Source: Picochlorum sp. SENEW3
Taxonomy: Eukaryota
Length of the DNA: 64,000 nt
Direction: 5' to 3'
Assembly: GCA_034226945.1 (NCBI GenBank)
Contig: CP120461.1
Location: forward strand, 620,001-684,000
Each line of letters opens with the position of its first letter. Within the stretch, counting starts at the first letter, position 1. This document shows, piece after piece, positions 23,974 through 45,038 of this stretch. The position numbers were made by a program, and so were the translations under genes. The notes below the pieces were generated by a model. The model was not told the origin of the DNA and ran no database searches. It saw only the letters and a list, made by a program, of their open reading frames with translations.

Positions 23974-24374
23974 GCTTATGTGTATGTGTATGCTGCAATC
24001 ACATGCAACGACAGTGTGCCTGCATTCTCAGTCTCCTTCAGTGCAAAAAGACAGGATTCAAAAGAATTATACAAGTGTTGCATTGTTGTAGGAATCGGAA
24101 TCGTCATGGTCATGTGCATTCCTTATCAAAGCAAAATAAAAAGTTGCAGCTTTGCTGACTGATTCGCAACGTCAATTGATTGCAATCGGACCAATCGGTC
24201 AAAGGTGCTTTTTGAAAGGCCATCATTGGAGAAATACTACACGTGGCTCAAGTACAATAATTCGCTCATCTTCAGCATATTCAGATTTTAGAATATTGTA
24301 AACAAGTGTCAGGTGCAATTGTGTTTGGGTTGAGGCGGTAGCACATCGTTTCTTGGTAAAGAGGCCCAACCAAG

Positions 24375-25880
24375 ATGTGGGGACCGAGGGCCTTCTCGCG
24401 TGGGATCACAGCATCCATCACTAGAATGCTGCTGTCTACGAAGGAATGCTCTACTGCTGCTGCAGTAGCAGCTATGCGGGCGGATACCTGTGGACTGAAG
24501 AGCCTGTGTCAAGGGACCAGGCTCAGCAAAGTTGCAACCTTTGAGCAAGCATGTAGCGGGGTGATGGCTCGTTATCAATGCACAGGTCTCTATAGGACTC
24601 TTGTCAATGAGACAAGAAGGACAGCTACAAGGACGGCGATGGTGGCGCCAAGTAGGACGATGTTTAGGTCTGTAAGCACCAGTGCACAGGCATCTGTTTC
24701 TGGATTAGGATCGCTCGTATCTGGGCTGTCGAACGGGCAGAGAAAGGCTGTGACGTGGTGGTTAGGGGCATCGTCAGCATGGGTGTTCAGTATGGTTGTG
24801 CTCGGTGGTGTCACGAGGTTGACGAGGTCTGGTCTCTCCATGACAGATTGGAAATTCACTGGGGAGAAGCCTCCTCAAAGTGAGGAAGAATGGCATGCAG
24901 AATTTGAACGGTACAAGTTATCTCCAGAGTATAAAAGAGTGAATAAATCGATGACACTGCAGGAATTTAAATTCATTTACTGGATGGAATGGGGTCATAG
25001 GATGTGGGGTCGGGGGTTGGGCATTGCATTCATCATACCATTCACTGCATTTTTGATGAACGGTGCCATTACGAAGCCCCTTGCGGCTCGTTTAGGATTG
25101 CTTTTTACTATGGGAGGAACGCAAGCTTTTGTGGGATGGTGGATGGTGAGAAGTGGTCTGCAGGAGCCTGATTCTCCCCATCAGGTTCCCAGGGTGAGCC
25201 CCTATCGATTAGCCTCTCACTTGACGTCTGCATTCGCGATTTATGCGCTCATGGTATGGACGACCTTATCTAGCGCATTCCCTGCACCTTTATCTGCAAC
25301 AACGAACGGATCAGGTGTGGCAGCCATGTCGCAGCTTCGTGCAAAGAGCCTTCCCTTTGCAGTGCTGTTATCTGTGACTGCCTTGTCTGGGGCGTTTGTT
25401 GCTGGATTGGATGCTGGGCATGCCTACAATACGTTTCCATTGATGAATGGGAGGTGGGTTCCAGAGGAATACTGGGATGTGCAAGGTTGGAGAAATGCAT
25501 TTGAAAACACAGCCGCAGTTCAATTTCACCACCGATGTCTTGCCATTTCTACCTTGGTGGGATCTGCAGCATTGTGGAAATATGGCGTGGGCCTTAAGGA
25601 TCTGCCAAGAACGCCAAGATTATTGCTTCATGGTTTAGCTCTCGGCACTGCCATGCAGGTGACGCTGGGCATTTCAACCCTGCTCATGTATGTCCCAGTG
25701 TCTCTCGGTGCAGCACATCAGGCTGGAGCGCTTTCATTGTTCACGATTTCATTAGCTTTGATTCATTCATTACGGTCCCATACACTGACTCCCTTTCAAA
25801 TCGCACTTTCAAAGTATGGTACCCCAGCTGCCGCTGCTGTGGTTGTGGGTCTTGGTGGAGCTGCAGCTGTTTCTGCATGA
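24375..25880 (+). CDS. COX15: Heme A synthase COX15
   Basis: GGVTRLTRSGLSMTDW, FKFIYWMEWGHRMWGR, VSPYRLASHL, QFHHR, AAHQ. Confidence 0.96.
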   Translation: MWGPRAFSRGITASITRMLLSTKECSTAAAVAAMRADTCGLKSLCQGTRLSKVATFEQACSGVMARYQCTGLYRTLVNETRRTATRTAMVAPSRTMFRSVSTSAQASVSGLGSLVSGLSNGQRKAVTWWLGASSAWVFSMVVLGGVTRLTRSGLSMTDWKFTGEKPPQSEEEWHAEFERYKLSPEYKRVNKSMTLQEFKFIYWMEWGHRMWGRGLGIAFIIPFTAFLMNGAITKPLAARLGLLFTMGGTQAFVGWWMVRSGLQEPDSPHQVPRVSPYRLASHLTSAFAIYALMVWTTLSSAFPAPLSATTNGSGVAAMSQLRAKSLPFAVLLSVTALSGAFVAGLDAGHAYNTFPLMNGRWVPEEYWDVQGWRNAFENTAAVQFHHRCLAISTLVGSAALWKYGVGLKDLPRTPRLLLHGLALGTAMQVTLGISTLLMYVPVSLGAAHQAGALSLFTISLALIHSLRSHTLTPFQIALSKYGTPAAAAVVVGLGGAAAVSA

Positions 25881-29164: not shown

Positions 29165-29369
29165 TATCTGATGGATCTTGCCATCCCATCAACAGTCATT
29201 ATTGATAGAAGCCTTGATAATATTAAAACTCCTTCGATCACAGGATATCTTTGATAGGAAGATCTCTCACAAAAGAAGATCTCTCCTTGCGTCGTGAATT
29301 TTGAAATACAGAAGGCGGGTGGTTGGCACTCGAGCCATTCTGATTTAGCACAATTTTGTACCTTGAAAA

Positions 29370-30657
29370 ATGTCTATAGATAAACGTGGTCCTAAATTAG
29401 GGGATGCGGCATCTTTGTACGTGTTGTTTGGCCTGGTTGAGTGTGAAAATACAAGACCGTTGTTGTTGTTGTTGTTGTTGAGACACGTTGTTCCACCCGG
29501 CAATGCCTCGTGTCTTCGAAAGCACGCCTTATCCAACTAATTCTATATTCCGAGAGAATGGAACGTGTCCATGATACGGATGGATCACACGTGACCTGAC
29601 ATGGTTGTGCAGGTGGAATTTCACACCGTCTCCAGGATGGACCAAGGAGGAAGCACAGACATTGAAATTATGCCTGATGAAGTATGGCATTGGAAGATGG
29701 GTGCAGATTTTAGACACTGGCCTGCTGCCTGGAAAACTGATTCAGCAGTTGAATGGCCAGACACAGAGGTTGTTGGGACAACAGAGTTTGGCTGCATACA
29801 CGGGTTTGCGGGTGGATATTGATCGCATTCGGCAGGACAATGAGGCCAAAGTGGATGCCCAGAGAAAGTCTGGTTTGATTATTTACAATGGACGTGCGTG
29901 TCTGTGTCTGTTGCGTCAACTGATGATGAGCATGTGTTGAGGTGTACACAATTTCTTTGCAGCTAATTTGACAAAAGAAATGAAAGAAAAGCTTCAAAAA
30001 GAAAGTAAAGTTCGGTATGGTTTAACAGAAGAGCAGATGATGGATGTGGAGCGACAGCTTGAAGATATATTTGAGGCCAAGATGAAGGAGCAGGGAGAAC
30101 TGAAGCATCACCGAGAAGTATTGAATCAGCTCAAATCCCTTAGATTTCCTGCGATCGATGAAATTCAAGCATTTTCAAGGGAAGAAAAGTTGCGTCGGTT
30201 GAGGGAGTTGTATCAGAAATTGCAGGAGGCTCATGCAGTGTACAAGTATCACACTTCCAGACAGCAATGTCATCACATGTTCCAAAGAAATCACAAAGCC
30301 TCGATGAATACGAGTGGTGGAAGAGAGAACGTTTCAGAAAATGGAAATATTAGGAGAACCTTGTCTGGTTCCAAGAATAAAAAGGGTGGTGACAAAAAGA
30401 AGAAGAATAATGGTGTGTCAAAGAAGAGAAGAGTGTCAGATGAGTCAGGGATGAAAGCGTCATCAACGGATGAGGAAATAGACGTCACGTATGATTCTGA
30501 TACTGCCAAAGAGTGTGAAGTAGCAGGTTTAGAAGCAAGCATCGCGACCCTCACAGCCATGGGTTTTGCTCGGAGGCAGGTGATTGATGCCTTGGACGAG
30601 GCAAATGGAAGCATAGAGGGCGCTGTCGAGTGGCTCACCGTGCATTGTGTGTATTGA
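29370..30657 (+). CDS. Myb/HTH-like p1 (AMTP1) subunit homologue of the MTA1/AMT1 DNA N6-adenine methyltransferase complex, with C-terminal UBA domain
   Basis: Exons 29370-29416, 29613-29893, 29963-30657 (340 aa); SPGWT.EE...LK..LMKYGIG.W..I...G.LP.K...Q.N.QTQRLLGQQSLA...GL matches my recollection of ciliate p1; UBA motif LTAMGFARRQVIDAL..ANGSIEGAVEWL. Confidence 0.8.
29459..29480. repeat. (GTT)n microsatellite in intron 1 of the p1 homologue
   Basis: gttgttgttgttgttgttgttg seen directly. Confidence 0.85.
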
Positions 30658-30699
30658 AATATCAGTTACAATTTTAATATTTAAAACGAAACGAAAAGA

Positions 30700-31461
30700 T
30701 TACTGAGCAGGCTGCTCACTCGGTACTGAGTTGGATATTATGGACTTGTCCGGATTCCGTAGGAATTGATTTTCTGCTTCTTCTGAATGATACACGCACG
30801 AAACCTGGGGATTCCCGGTCAGATCTCCAACAAAAGCAAATGTATTCATATTTCTCTTACAGTCCTGAACCTGTTGGCTATCGATCAAACCCCTGCTTTC
30901 CAAGACATTAAAGTTTGCTCTTCTCAGCACGCACCCAGGCTTGACTTCCGGTTGGGAGACGTACACATTGAACGGATTGAAAGACACAAATAGCCTCTGA
31001 TCAAATACCATGGAAGAATACCCATTTGCCATGCATACCTCAGAATTGGGAGTCTTGGTATCCACCAAGACTGTTGATGCTACATTTTTGGGGGCAAATG
31101 TGACTTCTGAAGCAAACCAAATACCAGCCCCCATGCCTAAAATAAATGAACCAGCCACAAATGCCTTTGTCAAATTTGAAAAGGGCCCCCCACCACCTGT
31201 ATCCCCTCCATTTCCTTGTGGTGGCCCACCAGGTGGACCAGAACCTCCTCGGCTAGGAGCTGTATCATACGTTCCAGGAATTGGATCAGGAACTCGTCTA
31301 ACTGCTACTGGATCTCTATTTGATCCTTCATACTGCTGTGCTCGTATCATGAGGCACCCACGTGCCATGCGAGAGCGACACGGACGTCCGAGAGGTTGCA
31401 GCCCTCTGCATTGCAGTGTCGTCGAAAGCGACGCACGCAGATCTGCCTGATAGAAAGACAT
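30700..31461 (-). CDS. DUF3172-family plastid protein (cyanobacterial type)
   Basis: Transit peptide, one TM helix (FILGMGAGIWF), C..GYSSMVFDQRLFVSFNPFNVYVSQP..KPGCVLR, CKRNMNTFAFVGDL. Confidence 0.8.
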   Translation of the reverse strand: MSFYQADLRASLSTTLQCRGLQPLGRPCRSRMARGCLMIRAQQYEGSNRDPVAVRRVPDPIPGTYDTAPSRGGSGPPGGPPQGNGGDTGGGGPFSNLTKAFVAGSFILGMGAGIWFASEVTFAPKNVASTVLVDTKTPNSEVCMANGYSSMVFDQRLFVSFNPFNVYVSQPEVKPGCVLRRANFNVLESRGLIDSQQVQDCKRNMNTFAFVGDLTGNPQVSCVYHSEEAENQFLRNPDKSIISNSVPSEQPAQ

Positions 31462-31643
31462 GTCTTACTATTTCGCAATAGCCTCATGTAAGGAAGTTTT
31501 AGGCATGTGAGGAATGGAATTCATCCCAAAATGTTCCGTATTAAAATTTCCAAAGTCGCCGAATTTTCAAGACAAGAGAAGGATATCATGTCCTCCATCA
31601 GTGCATTAATAATATATTGTGTGATCTTTAAATTGTATTTGTA

Positions 31644-42617: not shown

Positions 42618-45038
42618 ATGGAGAGTGGAGATACGGAATCGATATTTCATCTCAGCAGTCACCTCGTGGGTCACAAGGAAGACGTATGTTTGATTGTATT
42701 TTCTTTTCTTCTTCTTGGATTTGGATTTCGAGAGAGGTCGGTGGTCTCATGGATGCATGTGTGTGTGGTATAGGTTCGATGTTTGACTACAGATTCAGAG
42801 GGAGCGTATATTGTGACTGGTTCGAGGGATCGGACTATCAAAGTATGGAAGCAACAGCCTGATCCAGAGTGTGTGTGTGATCTGTCAGGGCATGGGGATT
42901 ATGTGACGGCGCTGTGTGCTGGTCCTCGAGAGGGGTGCTTGATATCTGGTTCGAGGGATGCGACGGTGCGGGTGTGGTTGGCAGATGAGGGGTTGGTGTG
43001 TAGAGAAGAGGGACAGGTGGTGTTGACAGGGCATGAGTACCAGGTGACTGGTCTTGCATGTTTCAAGGAGGGTGACATTATTGTGTCTACATCGTTGGAT
43101 AAGAGTACGAGAGTATGGAAGATGAATGGGGATTATTCGAGTGGGACATGTCTGCATGTCATGCAGGAGCATGATGGGCCTGTCCTGTGTGCTGCAAAAG
43201 TGTCAGAGAGTGCTTTGGTTACTGGAAGCGGGGATTGTACGCTGCGATTCTGGTCTATTGATAAAAGTGGGAATATAGCGTGTACTTCTGTGCTCAATGG
43301 GCATACGGATACGGTGAGGAGCGTTGCAAGTTTGCCTGGTATTGGGATTGTGTCTGGGTCGCATGATATGACCCTCAAGGTGTGGACGTTGGATGGGGAT
43401 TGTGTTCAGACTTTCGAAGGACATGGTGCGCTGATATATTCAGTTGCCGCGCATAGTGATAGTTCATTGATTGCGTCAGGGTCAGAGGATAATACTGTGA
43501 GGATCTGGAATTTGAGTGGAGAATGTGTCCAAGTGATCCAACATCCAGGATGTGTGTGGGCAGTCTGTTTCCTGCCGAATGGGGATTTAGTGACTGCATG
43601 TTCGGATGGGATTGGTAGAATATGGTCTCGGGATTCGAGTAGAATTGCCTCAGAGGAGGTGCAGTCCATGTATGAGGCCCAGGTGGAGGCATACACAGCC
43701 AAGCCTGAACAGCAGGAGGATGGACAGGGTAAAATGAAAATGTATGATAGTAGTGCTCTTCAACAGCCTGGTCAATACGATGGGCATACGATTGTTGTTG
43801 ATGAGGGCTCCTGTGGTATGGTGTATGCTTGGAATCAATCGGCTGCGGATTGGGAAAAGGTGGGTGAAGTGATGACAGATGGTGCAGCAGCTGATACTGG
43901 CAGTCAGTGGGATTTCGAATTCGATGTGGACATTGCTGATGATCAGCCAAAGTTAAAATTGTGCGCGAATGCGGGTGAAGACGCATATACCGTTGCTGAT
44001 CGATTTATAGCTGAACACAATCTTCCAACCAGTTACAAGGAACAGATTGCTCAATTCCTCGTCACAAACACCAGTGGCAAGGTGAATATTCATATGGATA
44101 CGTCTGGTTCGTATGTGGATCCATTTACGGGATCGAATGCATATGTACCGACGTCGAATGCTGCTCCTGCTCCGCCGTCATTTGCTGGTGGAGCAAATGT
44201 GGACCCATTTACAGGATCAGCTCCAGGTCAGAGCAGCAGGTTCCCTGTGAAGGAATATGTACTGTTTACGTCTCCTCTGTCAGCGAGCGCGAGGAAAAAG
44301 CTGAAGGAATTCAGTGACGACATAGCCAAGAAGGACGAAACGCTTGCCATTCAGGAGGATGAATGGGCAGCAATAGATGCCCTCTTGGATACTGCAACAC
44401 AAGGCCCCATGCCAGGTGTCATTGATAAAATTCTATGCTGGCCCAGTGACACAGTTTTTCCTCTCCTTGATATTTTTAGAGCACTTCTCTCGAATGACAA
44501 AGGTAGAGTCATGATGACGACATACCTGCAGAGCATCAAGGTACACCCAGAAAGTGGATCATGTGGTGCCACTATTGAGAAGATTTTGAGGGATCCAGAA
44601 AACAATGCGGGCAAAATCGCTGCTCTAAGAGTTCTTGTGAATCTATTCCACACAGACACAACTCCGATCGTCCTGGAGAATCTGGACCACCTGGTAAGCT
44701 TGGTGTCTCTGTGCAGGGACAGTGAGGTCAAGGGCATCCAAAATGCATACACTGCATTTGTCCTCAATACAGCTGTATTGCTCGCTAAAATGCTCGCTCC
44801 AAACGCTGATAGTATCTCAACAGTAGCGAATGAAGCAGCACAGTATGTGTGTAAGCACAAAGACTCGCCCAATGCTACAGCCTTGATGCAAGCATTGCTC
44901 GCTGTTGGAACGCTCAGGAGAGAATCCCTGTTGAAACGCTCAGATGTCCTGCATCTGATCGGATCCGACGTGTTTACGTCAATCTCTGCGCGTGCAGGAG
45001 AAGAAGCATCGATTGCTATAGAGTTACAAAAAATGTAA
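42618..45038 (+). CDS. PLAA: PLAA/Ufd3/Doa1 (WD40-PFU-PUL)
   Basis: Exons 42618-42683 and 42774-45038; WD40 repeats, WEKVGEV, DFEFDVDI, YVDPFTG..AYVP, FPLLDIFR. Confidence 0.93.

Follow-up and report, generated by a model that had tools for sequence, protein, structure and literature searches.

A probable p1/AMTP1 orthologue that carries a C-terminal UBA domain in the green alga Picochlorum sp. SENEW3, and its possible link to ubiquitin

The AMT1 (MTA1c) complex maintains symmetric 6mA at ApT. This mark lies in the linkers of the first nucleosomes downstream of active promoters, to which the writer must return after replication, and this raises the question of how AMT1 complexes locate the correct linker DNA. 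In the published Tetrahymena thermophila complex, the N-terminal loop (S13-S15) and the PGW linker of the accessory subunit p1 (AMTP1) dock at the AMT1 active site, residues K44, Y63, M64, Q67, R68, Q73, K101, K114, R117 and K118 contact DNA, and the segment 152-183 (L167, L170, I177, L181) binds the N-terminal helix of MTA1. The companion subunit p2 (AMTP2) was reported to make no DNA contact and to brace the AMT1 N-helix. Other published work describes Tetrahymena complexes that are recruited through add-ons, namely a PIP-box in AMT6 that works with PCNA, and bromodomain/MLL1 factors; it is therefore plausible that a recruiting module specific to another lineage exists elsewhere. P1 of the fungus Rhizopus microsporus, likewise a Myb-like DNA-binding partner of Mta1, is essential, and ChIP shows its enrichment at 6mA-rich linkers that lie downstream of the TSS. 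A 2018 preprint on MTA1c predates p1. Among green algae, the supplement of PMC12019607 (2025) gives Chlamydomonas reinhardtii Cre11.g467637 as p1. Green-algal p1 is thus already in print, and the novelty that the first-pass annotation of our locus gave to p1 homology is over-rated: this is a known family in an expected lineage, and its presence in a trebouxiophyte is not news.

The locus lies in a 64-kb window, the whole stretch of DNA that we analysed, and comprises three exons on the plus strand, the third spanning 29963-30657, that together encode a product of 340 amino acids. Its start codon, the ATG at 29370, is preceded by an in-frame TGA two codons upstream. The gene had initially been described as three in-phase exons; there are indeed three and the spliced frame is continuous, but the exons are not strictly in phase, as codon 16 is interrupted by intron 1 after two bases and codon 110 by intron 2 after one. 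Every peptide quoted at that stage is present in the translations of exon 2 (P0001, 93 aa) or exon 3 (P0002, 230 aa), including the Lys-rich stretch and the terminal MGF...AVEWL. Intron 1 contains a (GTT)n run at about 29460-29480.

Table. Features of the Picochlorum p1-UBA gene, with positions in the 64-kb window
Feature	Position	Strand	Description
Exon 1	29370..29416	+	residues 1-15 and two bases of codon 16; N-terminal tail KRGPKLGDAASL with invariant S15, L16; donor GT at 29417
Intron 1	29417..29612	+	196 nt, GT..AG; acceptor AG 29611-12; spliced out in X7 contig, retained in X3 contig
Exon 2	29613..29893	+	residues 16-110; p1-type homeobox/Myb-like DNA-binding domain (WNFTPSPGW...QTQRLLGQQSL...RKSGLIIYNG); donor GT at 29894
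Intron 2	29894..29962	+	69 nt, GT..AG; acceptor AG 29961-62; skipped in X3 and X7 contigs, present in DNA run X15
Exon 3, start	29963..30027	+	residues 110-131, PNLTKEMKEK...RYGL; extension of DNA-binding region (K114) and conserved Y128-G129-L130
Candidate AMT1-binding helices	30145..30249	+	residues 171-205: short helix, turn, start of long amphipathic helix (FSREEKLRRLRELYQKL); predicted structure
Lys/Arg-rich NLS-like stretch	30373..30432	+	residues 247-266 (KNKKGGDKKKKNNGVSKKRR), within disordered linker; putative NLS function
UBA domain	30532..30636	+	residues 300-334; three-helix bundle, M309-G310-F311 loop, AVEWL in helix 3
Stop codon TGA	30655..30657	+	

Both splice joints are seen in public contigs. 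The joint 29416->29613 is exact in the contig of run X7, and the joint 29893->29963 is exact in the contigs of X3 and X7; the DNA run X15, identical in sequence, is unspliced. None of the listed runs is recorded as RNA, and it is from their spliced contigs that X3 and X7 can be said to behave as such. The 1432-nt contig of X3 extends from exon 1 across exon 2, the spliced intron 2, the UBA-coding part and the stop codon to beyond 30800, so that the UBA is not encoded by a separate transcript. A database protein, P0003 (340 aa, eukprot label jgi/Picre1/30464), shares this exon structure; its identity to our gene is 100% over exon 2, and it matches at 227/230 residues over exon 3. The strain differences in exon 3 amount to nine synonymous and three non-synonymous changes, with none in exon 2 or in the UBA, and this variation shows purifying selection across the whole gene.

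The N-terminal region had been taken for a p1 homologue, and comparison with solved structures bears this out. A phmmer search of the PDB with exon 2 retrieved the Tetrahymena p1 chains 7yi8_C, 8xyl_C and 7f4l_E at E 1.4e-24; the alignment covers residues 17-109 (93/93 of the exon) with no gap and with about half of the positions identical by eye. By comparison, c-Myb came next at 7.5e-5, and p2, despite its related homeobox-like fold, reached only 0.6-1, far behind p1. A profile of 89 homologues matched p1 at E 1e-64, with an alignment that extends from the N-tail to NPTKE...YGLS and sets the start of exon 3 against NPTKEERKRR...IYGLS of the Tetrahymena protein; the profile includes a ciliate-like row, so this value is not independent evidence. 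When an AF2 model (pLDDT 79.5) was submitted to Foldseek, the top matches were p1 chains of DNA-bound MTA1c, 9u9e_C (E 5.7e-9, target TM 0.63) and 9o6k_C (E 7.4e-8, target TM 0.72), followed by p2 chains at E 0.05-0.5.

Of the residues through which AMTP1 acts, some are shared and others are not. S15, P23-G24-W25, Q67, R68, Q73, K101 and K114 are all kept in the alga; S15, L16, P23, G24, Q67, Q73, K101 and G109 are invariant in 89/89 homologue rows, R68 is nearly so, and Y128, G129 and L130 are at least 90% conserved. The N-terminal loop and the PGW linker are thus preserved at the sequence level. Two DNA-contact residues show conservative swaps (K44 to R44, R117 to K117), while others are changed: Y63/M64 to N63/G64 and K118 to E118, together with the clasp residue D110, which is P110 here. 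From these results, we consider that the gene probably encodes a p1/AMTP1 orthologue, the accessory subunit that binds DNA in the eukaryotic AMT1 (MTA1c) complex.

Beyond the DNA-binding region, the AF2 model predicts helices at residues 174-178 and 182-225, with block pLDDT of 88-94 over 171-200 and leucines in a heptad pattern. On the basis of this pattern, we propose residues 171-205 as the predicted counterpart of p1's helix-turn-helix-like motif, which binds the N-terminal helix of AMT1. HMMER's alignment of this region to Tetrahymena 152-183 is weak, and its mean identity to the Picochlorum protein is 0.20 (rows not named as non-green). A basic, disordered linker of about 85 residues precedes the UBA (AF2 pLDDT below 50 over 228-287), and its Lys/Arg-rich stretch resembles an NLS.

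The protein ends in a canonical UBA domain, as had been noticed from the sequence. The C-terminus matches Pfam PF00627 at 39.2 bits (E 5.8e-10; cutoff 22.4) and PF22562 at 27.6 bits (cutoff 27), and its closest UBA sequence matches are USP5 and USP13 (E ~8e-4). The AF2 model places helices at 288-308, 313-322 and 327-338, with block pLDDT of 89-97 over 301-340; Foldseek superposes this fold on the solved UBAs of Mud1, USP5, Cbl-b and HHR23A with an rmsd of 0.4-0.8 A, and on solved UBA-ubiquitin complexes (2oob_A, 2g3q) at 0.5-0.8 A. Across the homologues the MGF/Y loop is almost unvarying (M in 77/78, G in 77/78, F or Y in 77/78), and L334 is found in 70/76.

A UBA-type domain (UBA_7) was found in 76 of the 89 aligned full-length homologues, and by these sequences the p1-UBA arrangement is general across green algae, in nearly all green-algal copies examined. 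It includes the Chlamydomonas protein (P0042, locus tag CHLRE_11g467637v5, 507 aa). By Pfam scan, none of the red-algal, amoebozoan, fungal or ciliate-like homologues examined has the UBA, the fungi being represented by a single scanned homologue, Ramicandelaber P0233. A Balamuthia entry named "UBA domain-containing protein" has no UBA by Pfam scan or by eye, and we take its name to have been transferred. P0103, which has a UBA and is labelled "Pavlova lutheri", was considered as an independent lineage and set aside: it nests within the green clade beside Chloropicon with moderate support, and could be a contamination or a green-derived gene. Faulty gene models seem to account for the green-like rows that lack the domain. 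In the Mamiellales-like P0069, P0086 and P0098 the tail is frame-shifted or merged, the Prasinococcus row P0164 contains unusual insertions, and the Acetabularia-type transcripts P0051, P0064 and P0073 may have been cut at TAA/TAG codons, which are read as Gln in such algae. A UBA on p1 is not mentioned in the text or in six of the seven supplement files of PMC12019607, and the fusion is apparently undiscussed in the literature searched; an AMTP1 alignment in bioRxiv 10.1101/2025.07.08.663716 (File S3) may show green-algal sequences. Databases give the relatives no name beyond "UBA domain-containing" or hypothetical protein.

Could the resemblance to p1 be generic, the protein being an ordinary Myb/SANT factor? 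The database names are compatible with this, and the exon 2 domain does match Pfam Myb_DNA-binding (PF00249), weakly, with scores of 23.6 bits (exon 2) and 21.6 bits (entire protein) that fall short of the cutoff of 24.4. However, the match to p1 is some 20 orders of magnitude better than any to Myb, it covers 93 ungapped residues against a Myb core of about 45, the homology reaches into the N-tail and NPTKE...YGL, and the best fold matches are p1 and then p2. The sequence, profile and fold matches have already refuted this explanation, and we give it almost no weight. Alternatively, AMT1 may have been lost in this alga and the protein retained for a different function, such as sequence-specific DNA binding coupled to ubiquitin signalling. 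The AMT1 pathway has been lost repeatedly in eukaryotes, cases are published in which AMT1 and its partners do not occur together, and in published tables the chlorophyte Ulva lacks any MT-A70, so that loss does occur. Our own scans do not place a writer beside the gene: a Pfam scan found no MT-A70 among the 123 stop-to-stop ORFs of at least 110 aa in the window, and a crude screen, which misses split exons, found no DPPW ORF of at least 70 aa beside p1 homologues at 80 metagenome loci (956 kb). Against loss, the same tables record AMT1 in 8/9 sampled chlorophytes and both AMT1 and AMT6/7 in all three sampled trebouxiophytes, and the strain variation described above points to purifying selection over the whole gene. 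We therefore regard loss of AMT1 as very unlikely, and think it likely that the protein is a member of an AMT1 complex in this alga. The alga may also retain a 6mA system, a view based on the conserved AMT1-contact positions together with the published presence of AMT1 in chlorophytes. 6mA has been measured in Chlorella, Micromonas, Ostreococcus and Chlamydomonas; our literature search returned no 6mA data for Picochlorum, which is absent from the 12 supplement files of PMC12695648 and from six of the seven of PMC12019607, and which the one 6mA paper that names it treats only for 5mC.

If the protein is a p1 orthologue, the UBA could still be a protein-protein or stability module that does not read ubiquitin: its partner might be another subunit or something other than ubiquitin, or it might mediate dimerisation or protect the protein in cis from proteasomal degradation. 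Ubiquitin binding is not shared by all UBA or UBA-like domains, and a UBA can serve as a stabilisation signal, as in Rad23. In addition, ciliate, fungal, red-algal and amoebozoan p1 proteins work, or at least persist, without a UBA, from which it follows that ubiquitin reading is not intrinsic to the complex. Set against this are the near-invariance of the MGF/Y loop and of hydrophobic positions in helix 3, including L334, which form the ubiquitin-binding face in solved complexes, and the fact that the nearest sequence and fold matches are the ubiquitin-binding UBAs of USP5, USP13, RAD23, Cbl-b, Ede1 and Dsk2; the disordered linker, as modelled, would also suit a tether better than a packed subunit interface. 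On balance, we judge a non-reader UBA rather unlikely. A further idea, that the UBA stands in for p2, is weakened by PMC12019607, which lists a Chlamydomonas p2, Cre16.g692750, in its supplement and also gives MTA1 (Cre06.g288100) and MTA9 (Cre10.g452300) for that alga: as Chlamydomonas is reported to have p2 as well, the UBA is not needed to replace it.

We hypothesise instead that the UBA of algal p1 binds ubiquitin, the textbook partner of such domains, and that it may read ubiquitinated chromatin. By homology with the Tetrahymena protein, K101 and K114 would contact the DNA backbone and the helix-turn-helix at about 171-205 would anchor p1 on the AMT1 N-terminal helix, leaving the UBA as a flexible tether on the disordered basic linker. 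The UBA could then hold or recruit the writer complex to a chromatin or replication protein that is ubiquitylated, beside the linker DNA that the complex methylates, with H2Bub1 on 5' gene-body nucleosomes as a first guess at its ligand. Such ubiquitin-dependent tethering by a putative ubiquitin-binding UBA is a tentative proposal, in which we place somewhat less than even confidence. The fuller version, in which the target read by the UBA, either a nucleosome with H2Bub1 at the 5' end of transcribed genes or a replication factor, is ubiquitylated and so sets where and when the AMT1 complex restores linker 6mA, is more speculative, and we offer it as an unlikely possibility.

A UBA fixed to p1 in nearly all green-algal copies examined is a simple, testable candidate for an algal recruiting add-on. 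If the fuller version of the proposal is true, ubiquitin signalling would have a direct connection to the writer of adenine methylation in green algae. No earlier reader would have joined histone ubiquitylation to adenine methylation of DNA, and cytosine methylation would offer the parallels UHRF1-DNMT1 and H2AK119ub-DNMT3A1. Chlamydomonas lends itself to genetics, and 6mA maps exist for it. The finding also corrects the naming of these p1 proteins in databases.

Taken together, these comparisons place the Picochlorum protein beside Tetrahymena p1, with which (in the five chains named above) it shares the N-tail with S15, the PGW linker, the three-helix DNA-binding domain, the NPTKE...YGL extension and, as predicted, a later helix-turn-helix; the role expected from the ciliate protein is that of a DNA clamp that activates AMT1. 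The two differ in that Y63/M64 and D110 of Tetrahymena p1 are not kept, and in that the ciliate protein, at 360 aa, lacks a UBA and carries a long acidic/basic region at its C-terminus, the match of the profile to it stopping before the UBA. Chlamydomonas P0042, of the same family and architecture, is 77% identical over the DNA-binding domain and likewise ends in a UBA, with a low-complexity linker longer than that of Picochlorum. Fungal P1 differs in lacking the UBA, as judged from Ramicandelaber P0233. As regards placement on chromatin, plant DRM2 carries UBA domains, DNMT1 reads UHRF1-made ubiquitin on H3 and PAF15, and DNMT3A1 reads H2AK119ub. These proteins and AMT6, with its PIP-box for PCNA, share the idea of a small reader module on a writer complex; unlike all of them, the algal system has its module, a candidate reader, on an accessory subunit that binds DNA for an adenine methyltransferase.

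The N-terminal part of the protein is p1/AMTP1, the DNA-binding subunit of the AMT1 (MTA1c) 6mA-writer complex. When its exon 2 translation was compared with all PDB sequences, we found that it matched the Tetrahymena p1 chains 7yi8_C, 8xyl_C and 7f4l_E (E 1.4e-24) in an ungapped alignment of query residues 1-93 with chain residues 17-109; the next match after p1 was c-Myb (E 7.5e-5), and p2/AMTP2 reached only 0.6-1. Pfam alone cannot name the family: its Myb_DNA-binding model scores 23.6 bits on exon 2, below the cutoff of 24.4. A profile of A1, our alignment of 89 full-length homologues, matched p1 at E 1e-64, a score that is not independent, since the profile includes one ciliate-like row; the alignment reaches beyond the domain on both sides, into the N-tail (..SLWN..) and, past residue 110, through NPTKE...YGLS. 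An AlphaFold2 model built on A1 (mean pLDDT 79.5; high-confidence stretches at about 22-215 and 290-340, disorder at 1-21 and 228-287) had as its top Foldseek match 9u9e_C, the p1 of hemimethylated-DNA-bound MTA1c (E 5.7e-9, 46% identity over 124 columns), followed by AMTP1 of 9o6k (E 7.4e-8) and then by p2 chains. These data uphold the close match to p1 that the first-pass annotation had proposed, and the best hits are not ordinary Myb/SANT proteins.

Features of the p1-UBA gene and its product (window coordinates unless stated)
Feature	Position	Strand	Details
p1-UBA gene, three exons	29370-30657	+	start ATG 29370, end TGA
Exon 1	29370-29416	+	donor GT after 29416
Exon 2	29613-29893	+	translation P0001, 93 residues
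Exon 3	29963-30657	+	translation P0002, 230 residues, terminal TGA
UBA domain	residues 300-334		Pfam UBA 39.2 bits (cutoff 22.4), UBA_7 27.6 bits (cutoff 27)

The spliced frame is unbroken and encodes 340 residues, with an in-frame TGA two codons 5' of the ATG. All peptide strings first read from this gene occur in translated exons 2 and 3. The accompanying description of three in-phase exons stands as to their number and continuous frame, but the introns differ in phase: intron 1 falls between the second and third bases of codon 16, intron 2 between the first and second bases of codon 110. To follow the transcript, contigs (not reads) of four public sequencing runs, none with RNA as its recorded type, were aligned to 29200-30800. 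The X7 contig carries the joints 29416 to 29613 (196 nt skipped) and 29893 to 29963 (69 nt skipped), both GT..AG, and the X3 contig (1432 nt) retains intron 1, lacks intron 2 and extends past the UBA-coding part, the stop codon and position 30800. The DNA run X15, near-identical to the window and possibly its source, has no joint at either intron; because these exact GT..AG joints are missing from DNA, the X3 and X7 contigs speak for spliced RNA. The database protein P0003 (jgi/Picre1/30464; 340 aa) is 100% identical over exon 2 and agrees with exon 3 at 227 of 230 residues, the three differences being alleles also present in runs X1, X3 and X7. The label 'Picre1' presumably denotes Picochlorum renovo, a trebouxiophyte. 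Both domains also occur in complete transcript-derived ORFs of other species (MMETSP P0008 and P0083). The objection that the UBA part might be a separate transcript fails, because the contigs (X3 joining spliced exons to the UBA and stop), P0003 and the MMETSP ORFs all link it with the p1 part: the fused transcript is real.

Intron 1 contains a (GTT)n microsatellite (29451-29486), masked as a repeat in the contig alignment, where the X1 contigs are apparently cut. Translated from the ATG, the X3 form with intron 1 (29389-29893) reaches a stop at 29538-29540 after 56 codons, and may represent intron retention or pre-mRNA, not a second product. Strain differences number 12 in exon 3 (29998-30483, residues 122 to 283; 9 synonymous and 3 non-synonymous, K122E, R170S and N258K), 7 in intron 1 and 5 in the 3' flank, with none in exon 2 or the UBA. 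The convergent neighbour (30703-31464, minus strand) encodes a DUF3172 protein (PF11371, E 9e-59) with 46 bases between the end of its ORF and the p1 stop; the 3' ends of the two genes probably overlap, since the X3 contig continues from one into the other. Upstream of p1, about 3.5 kb away, is a COX15 gene (24360-25877, plus strand), and an aldolase gene separates the two. The Auxenochlorella entry P0050 (627 aa, 'COX15-like') holds a COX15 and a p1 domain together; probably the result of merging two gene models, it hints that the neighbourhood is conserved. Some 12 kb downstream of p1 lies the gene of a WD40-PFU-PUL protein (PLAA/Doa1 type, ubiquitin-binding; 42774-45035, plus strand), just one of the window's many housekeeping genes, others being EMP70, PPP5 phosphatase, ERCC4, Vps4, importin-beta, Sec7 GEF, PsaD and RPL32e.

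The terminal UBA proposed in the first-pass annotation is borne out by its Pfam UBA score, above the cutoff, on the same transcript as the p1 part. Among sequences with solved structures, it is closest to the UBAs of USP5 and USP13 (E ~8e-4 with the single sequence, 5e-7 with a profile). It is modelled as a three-helix bundle (block pLDDT 89-97 over 301-340) that fits UBA structures to within 0.4-0.8 A, among them those of Cbl-b and Ede1 in complex with ubiquitin; for such short matches the Foldseek E-values are weak (0.5-3), with probabilities of 0.96-1.0. Right after UBA helix 3, 1 to 3 residues from the C-terminus, green algae in A1 carry a conserved N-C dipeptide (N in 64/75, C in 57/74), at which position Picochlorum P0003 has H-C (residues 337-338).

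Judged by sequence, this fusion is found across green algae and is not peculiar to Picochlorum. A word-indexed search gave 264 relatives with E <= 1e-3 among 339 candidates, and an exhaustive search 579 representatives, 355 of them at E <= 1e-10. Named members of the family belong to the Trebouxiophyceae, Chlorophyceae, Ulvophyceae, Chloropicophyceae and Mamiellophyceae. Homologues at 47-58% identity include the red algae Galdieria, Cyanidium and Cyanidioschyzon, the Amoebozoa Balamuthia and Soliformovum, the fungus Ramicandelaber, and an unnamed Q/N-rich eukprot entry taken to be a ciliate. A UBA-type domain was precomputed for 79 of 120 relatives among the matches listed (counted from the table), those without it being mostly fragments below 250 aa or merged models. 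The survey across relatives suggested at first reading found UBA_7 in 76 of the 89 A1 members on rescanning, and MG[FY] lies within the last 70 residues of 77 of 113 stored sequences (255-520 aa, with the N-terminal motif). A1 excludes redundant Cyanidioschyzon cluster members and 12 sequences of at least 255 aa without MG[FY] (P0017, P0024, P0051, P0064, P0067, P0069, P0073, P0074, P0086, P0095, P0097 and P0098); the excluded sequences that were inspected resemble gene models that are truncated, frame-shifted or merged, or transcripts of variant-code algae. In rows not named as non-green, the UBA loop has M, G, and F or Y each in 77/78, and identity to the Picochlorum protein averages 0.37 over the UBA versus 0.12 over the linker; only the N-terminal tail and the DNA-binding domain with its extension are better conserved than the UBA. 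By tblastn, 39 of 80 metagenome loci (counted from the results) cover the N-terminal region to at least residue 334 in one genomic stretch. No UBA was found at E <= 0.01 in any of 10 more distant homologues (red-algal, amoebozoan, fungal, ciliate-like and unnamed), and the Tetrahymena chain alignment stops where the UBA starts. The UBA-bearing sequences make up the green clade (support 84/90) of a 25-row tree. Within it, P0103, a p1-UBA protein under the haptophyte label 'Pavlova lutheri' in eukprot, groups with Chloropicon (support 86/87) and may reflect contamination or a gene of green origin. Balamuthia mandrillaris P0221 and P0262 are named 'UBA domain-containing protein' at source, although neither Pfam (E <= 0.01) nor inspection by eye reveals a UBA; green-algal relatives are the probable origin of the name.

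The Chlamydomonas member, P0042, has the locus tag CHLRE_11g467637v5, and the PMC12019607 supplement gives Cre11.g467637 as p1, with MTA1 Cre06.g288100, MTA9 Cre10.g452300 and p2 Cre16.g692750. PMC12695648 describes the co-occurrence of AMT1 with AMT6/7 and p1/p2, exceptions included, and 6mA measured in Chlamydomonas, Chlorella variabilis, Micromonas and Ostreococcus. Its Supplementary Table 1, from which Picochlorum is missing, scores AMT1 in 8/9 and AMT6/7 in 6/9 chlorophytes, with neither in Ulva and both in 3/3 trebouxiophytes. Because Chlamydomonas p1 (PMC12019607) and this AMT1 distribution (PMC12695648) are published, it is expected, not new, that a trebouxiophyte should have a p1 orthologue, and the Picochlorum gene is an ordinary representative of a family already in print. 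MT-A70 was not found among the 123 ORFs of at least 110 aa in the 64-kb window, nor DPPW adjoining p1 homologues in a crude motif screen of metagenome loci (956 kb). Picochlorum likely keeps a 6mA system.

Databases name the relatives 'UBA domain-containing protein'. The word UBA is absent from the main texts of PMC12695648, PMC9852454, PMC12019607, bioRxiv 10.1101/2025.07.08.663716 and bioRxiv 10.1101/475384, and from the supplement files searched for two of these papers. Our literature search found no paper with UBA domain, 6mA and MT-A70 together, no 'ubiquitin-associated' among the ten listed papers matching 6mA, Chlamydomonas and MTA1 terms, and Cre11.g467637 in no main text. The UBA itself is on record; its attachment to a 6mA writer seems undiscussed.

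On the pattern of the Tetrahymena structures, the Picochlorum protein would serve as DNA clamp and activator of the AMT1-AMT6/7 heterodimer, and we hypothesize that its UBA, on a disordered basic linker of ~85 residues, tethers the complex to a ubiquitylated chromatin protein. Our guess at the ligand would be H2Bub1 on transcribed 5' nucleosomes, the best fit to 6mA location, or alternatively a ubiquitylated replication factor. The main rival explanation gives the UBA on p1 a different role, in another contact or in protein stability. A module for recruitment on p1 would make sense because Tetrahymena recruits its two complexes via add-ons, through PCNA (AMT6 PIP-box) and bromodomain/MLL1-linked marks, and because Micromonas and Ostreococcus are scored without AMT6/7 (PMC12695648 Supplementary Table 1). 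The green-algal fusion offers a testable handle on targeting of the adenine-methylation writer.

Since the exon 2 match to Tetrahymena p1 is ungapped, Tetrahymena numbering is valid for residues 17-109. Across the 89 A1 homologues, S15, L16, N18, P23, G24, Q67, Q73, K101 and G109 are invariant. The N-tail holding S15 is disordered when modelled alone (pLDDT < 50), and because an invariant residue stands in a tail that is disordered by itself, its conservation is hard to explain otherwise than by a predicted contact with AMT1. The modelled region of the candidate AMT1-binding motif consists of a short helix (174-178) that a turn separates from a long helix starting at 182 (FSREEKLRRLRELYQKL), whose leucines match the heptad positions of Tetrahymena L167/L170/L173/I177, in a stretch where the HMMER alignment is unreliable and identity low (0.20); the likeness of these helices to the motif is only a pattern. 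The structural papers on Tetrahymena AMTP1 describe PGW 23-25 as a conserved linker, Y63, M64, Q67 and Q73 as recognition-helix residues in the major groove, K44, R68, K101, K114, R117 and K118 as basic contacts, and D110 as part of the clasp to AMT7. The Picochlorum protein differs from Tetrahymena AMTP1 at N63, G64, P110 and E118, has conservative changes at R44 and K117, and shares with it S15, P23-G24-W25, Q67, R68, Q73, K101 and K114.
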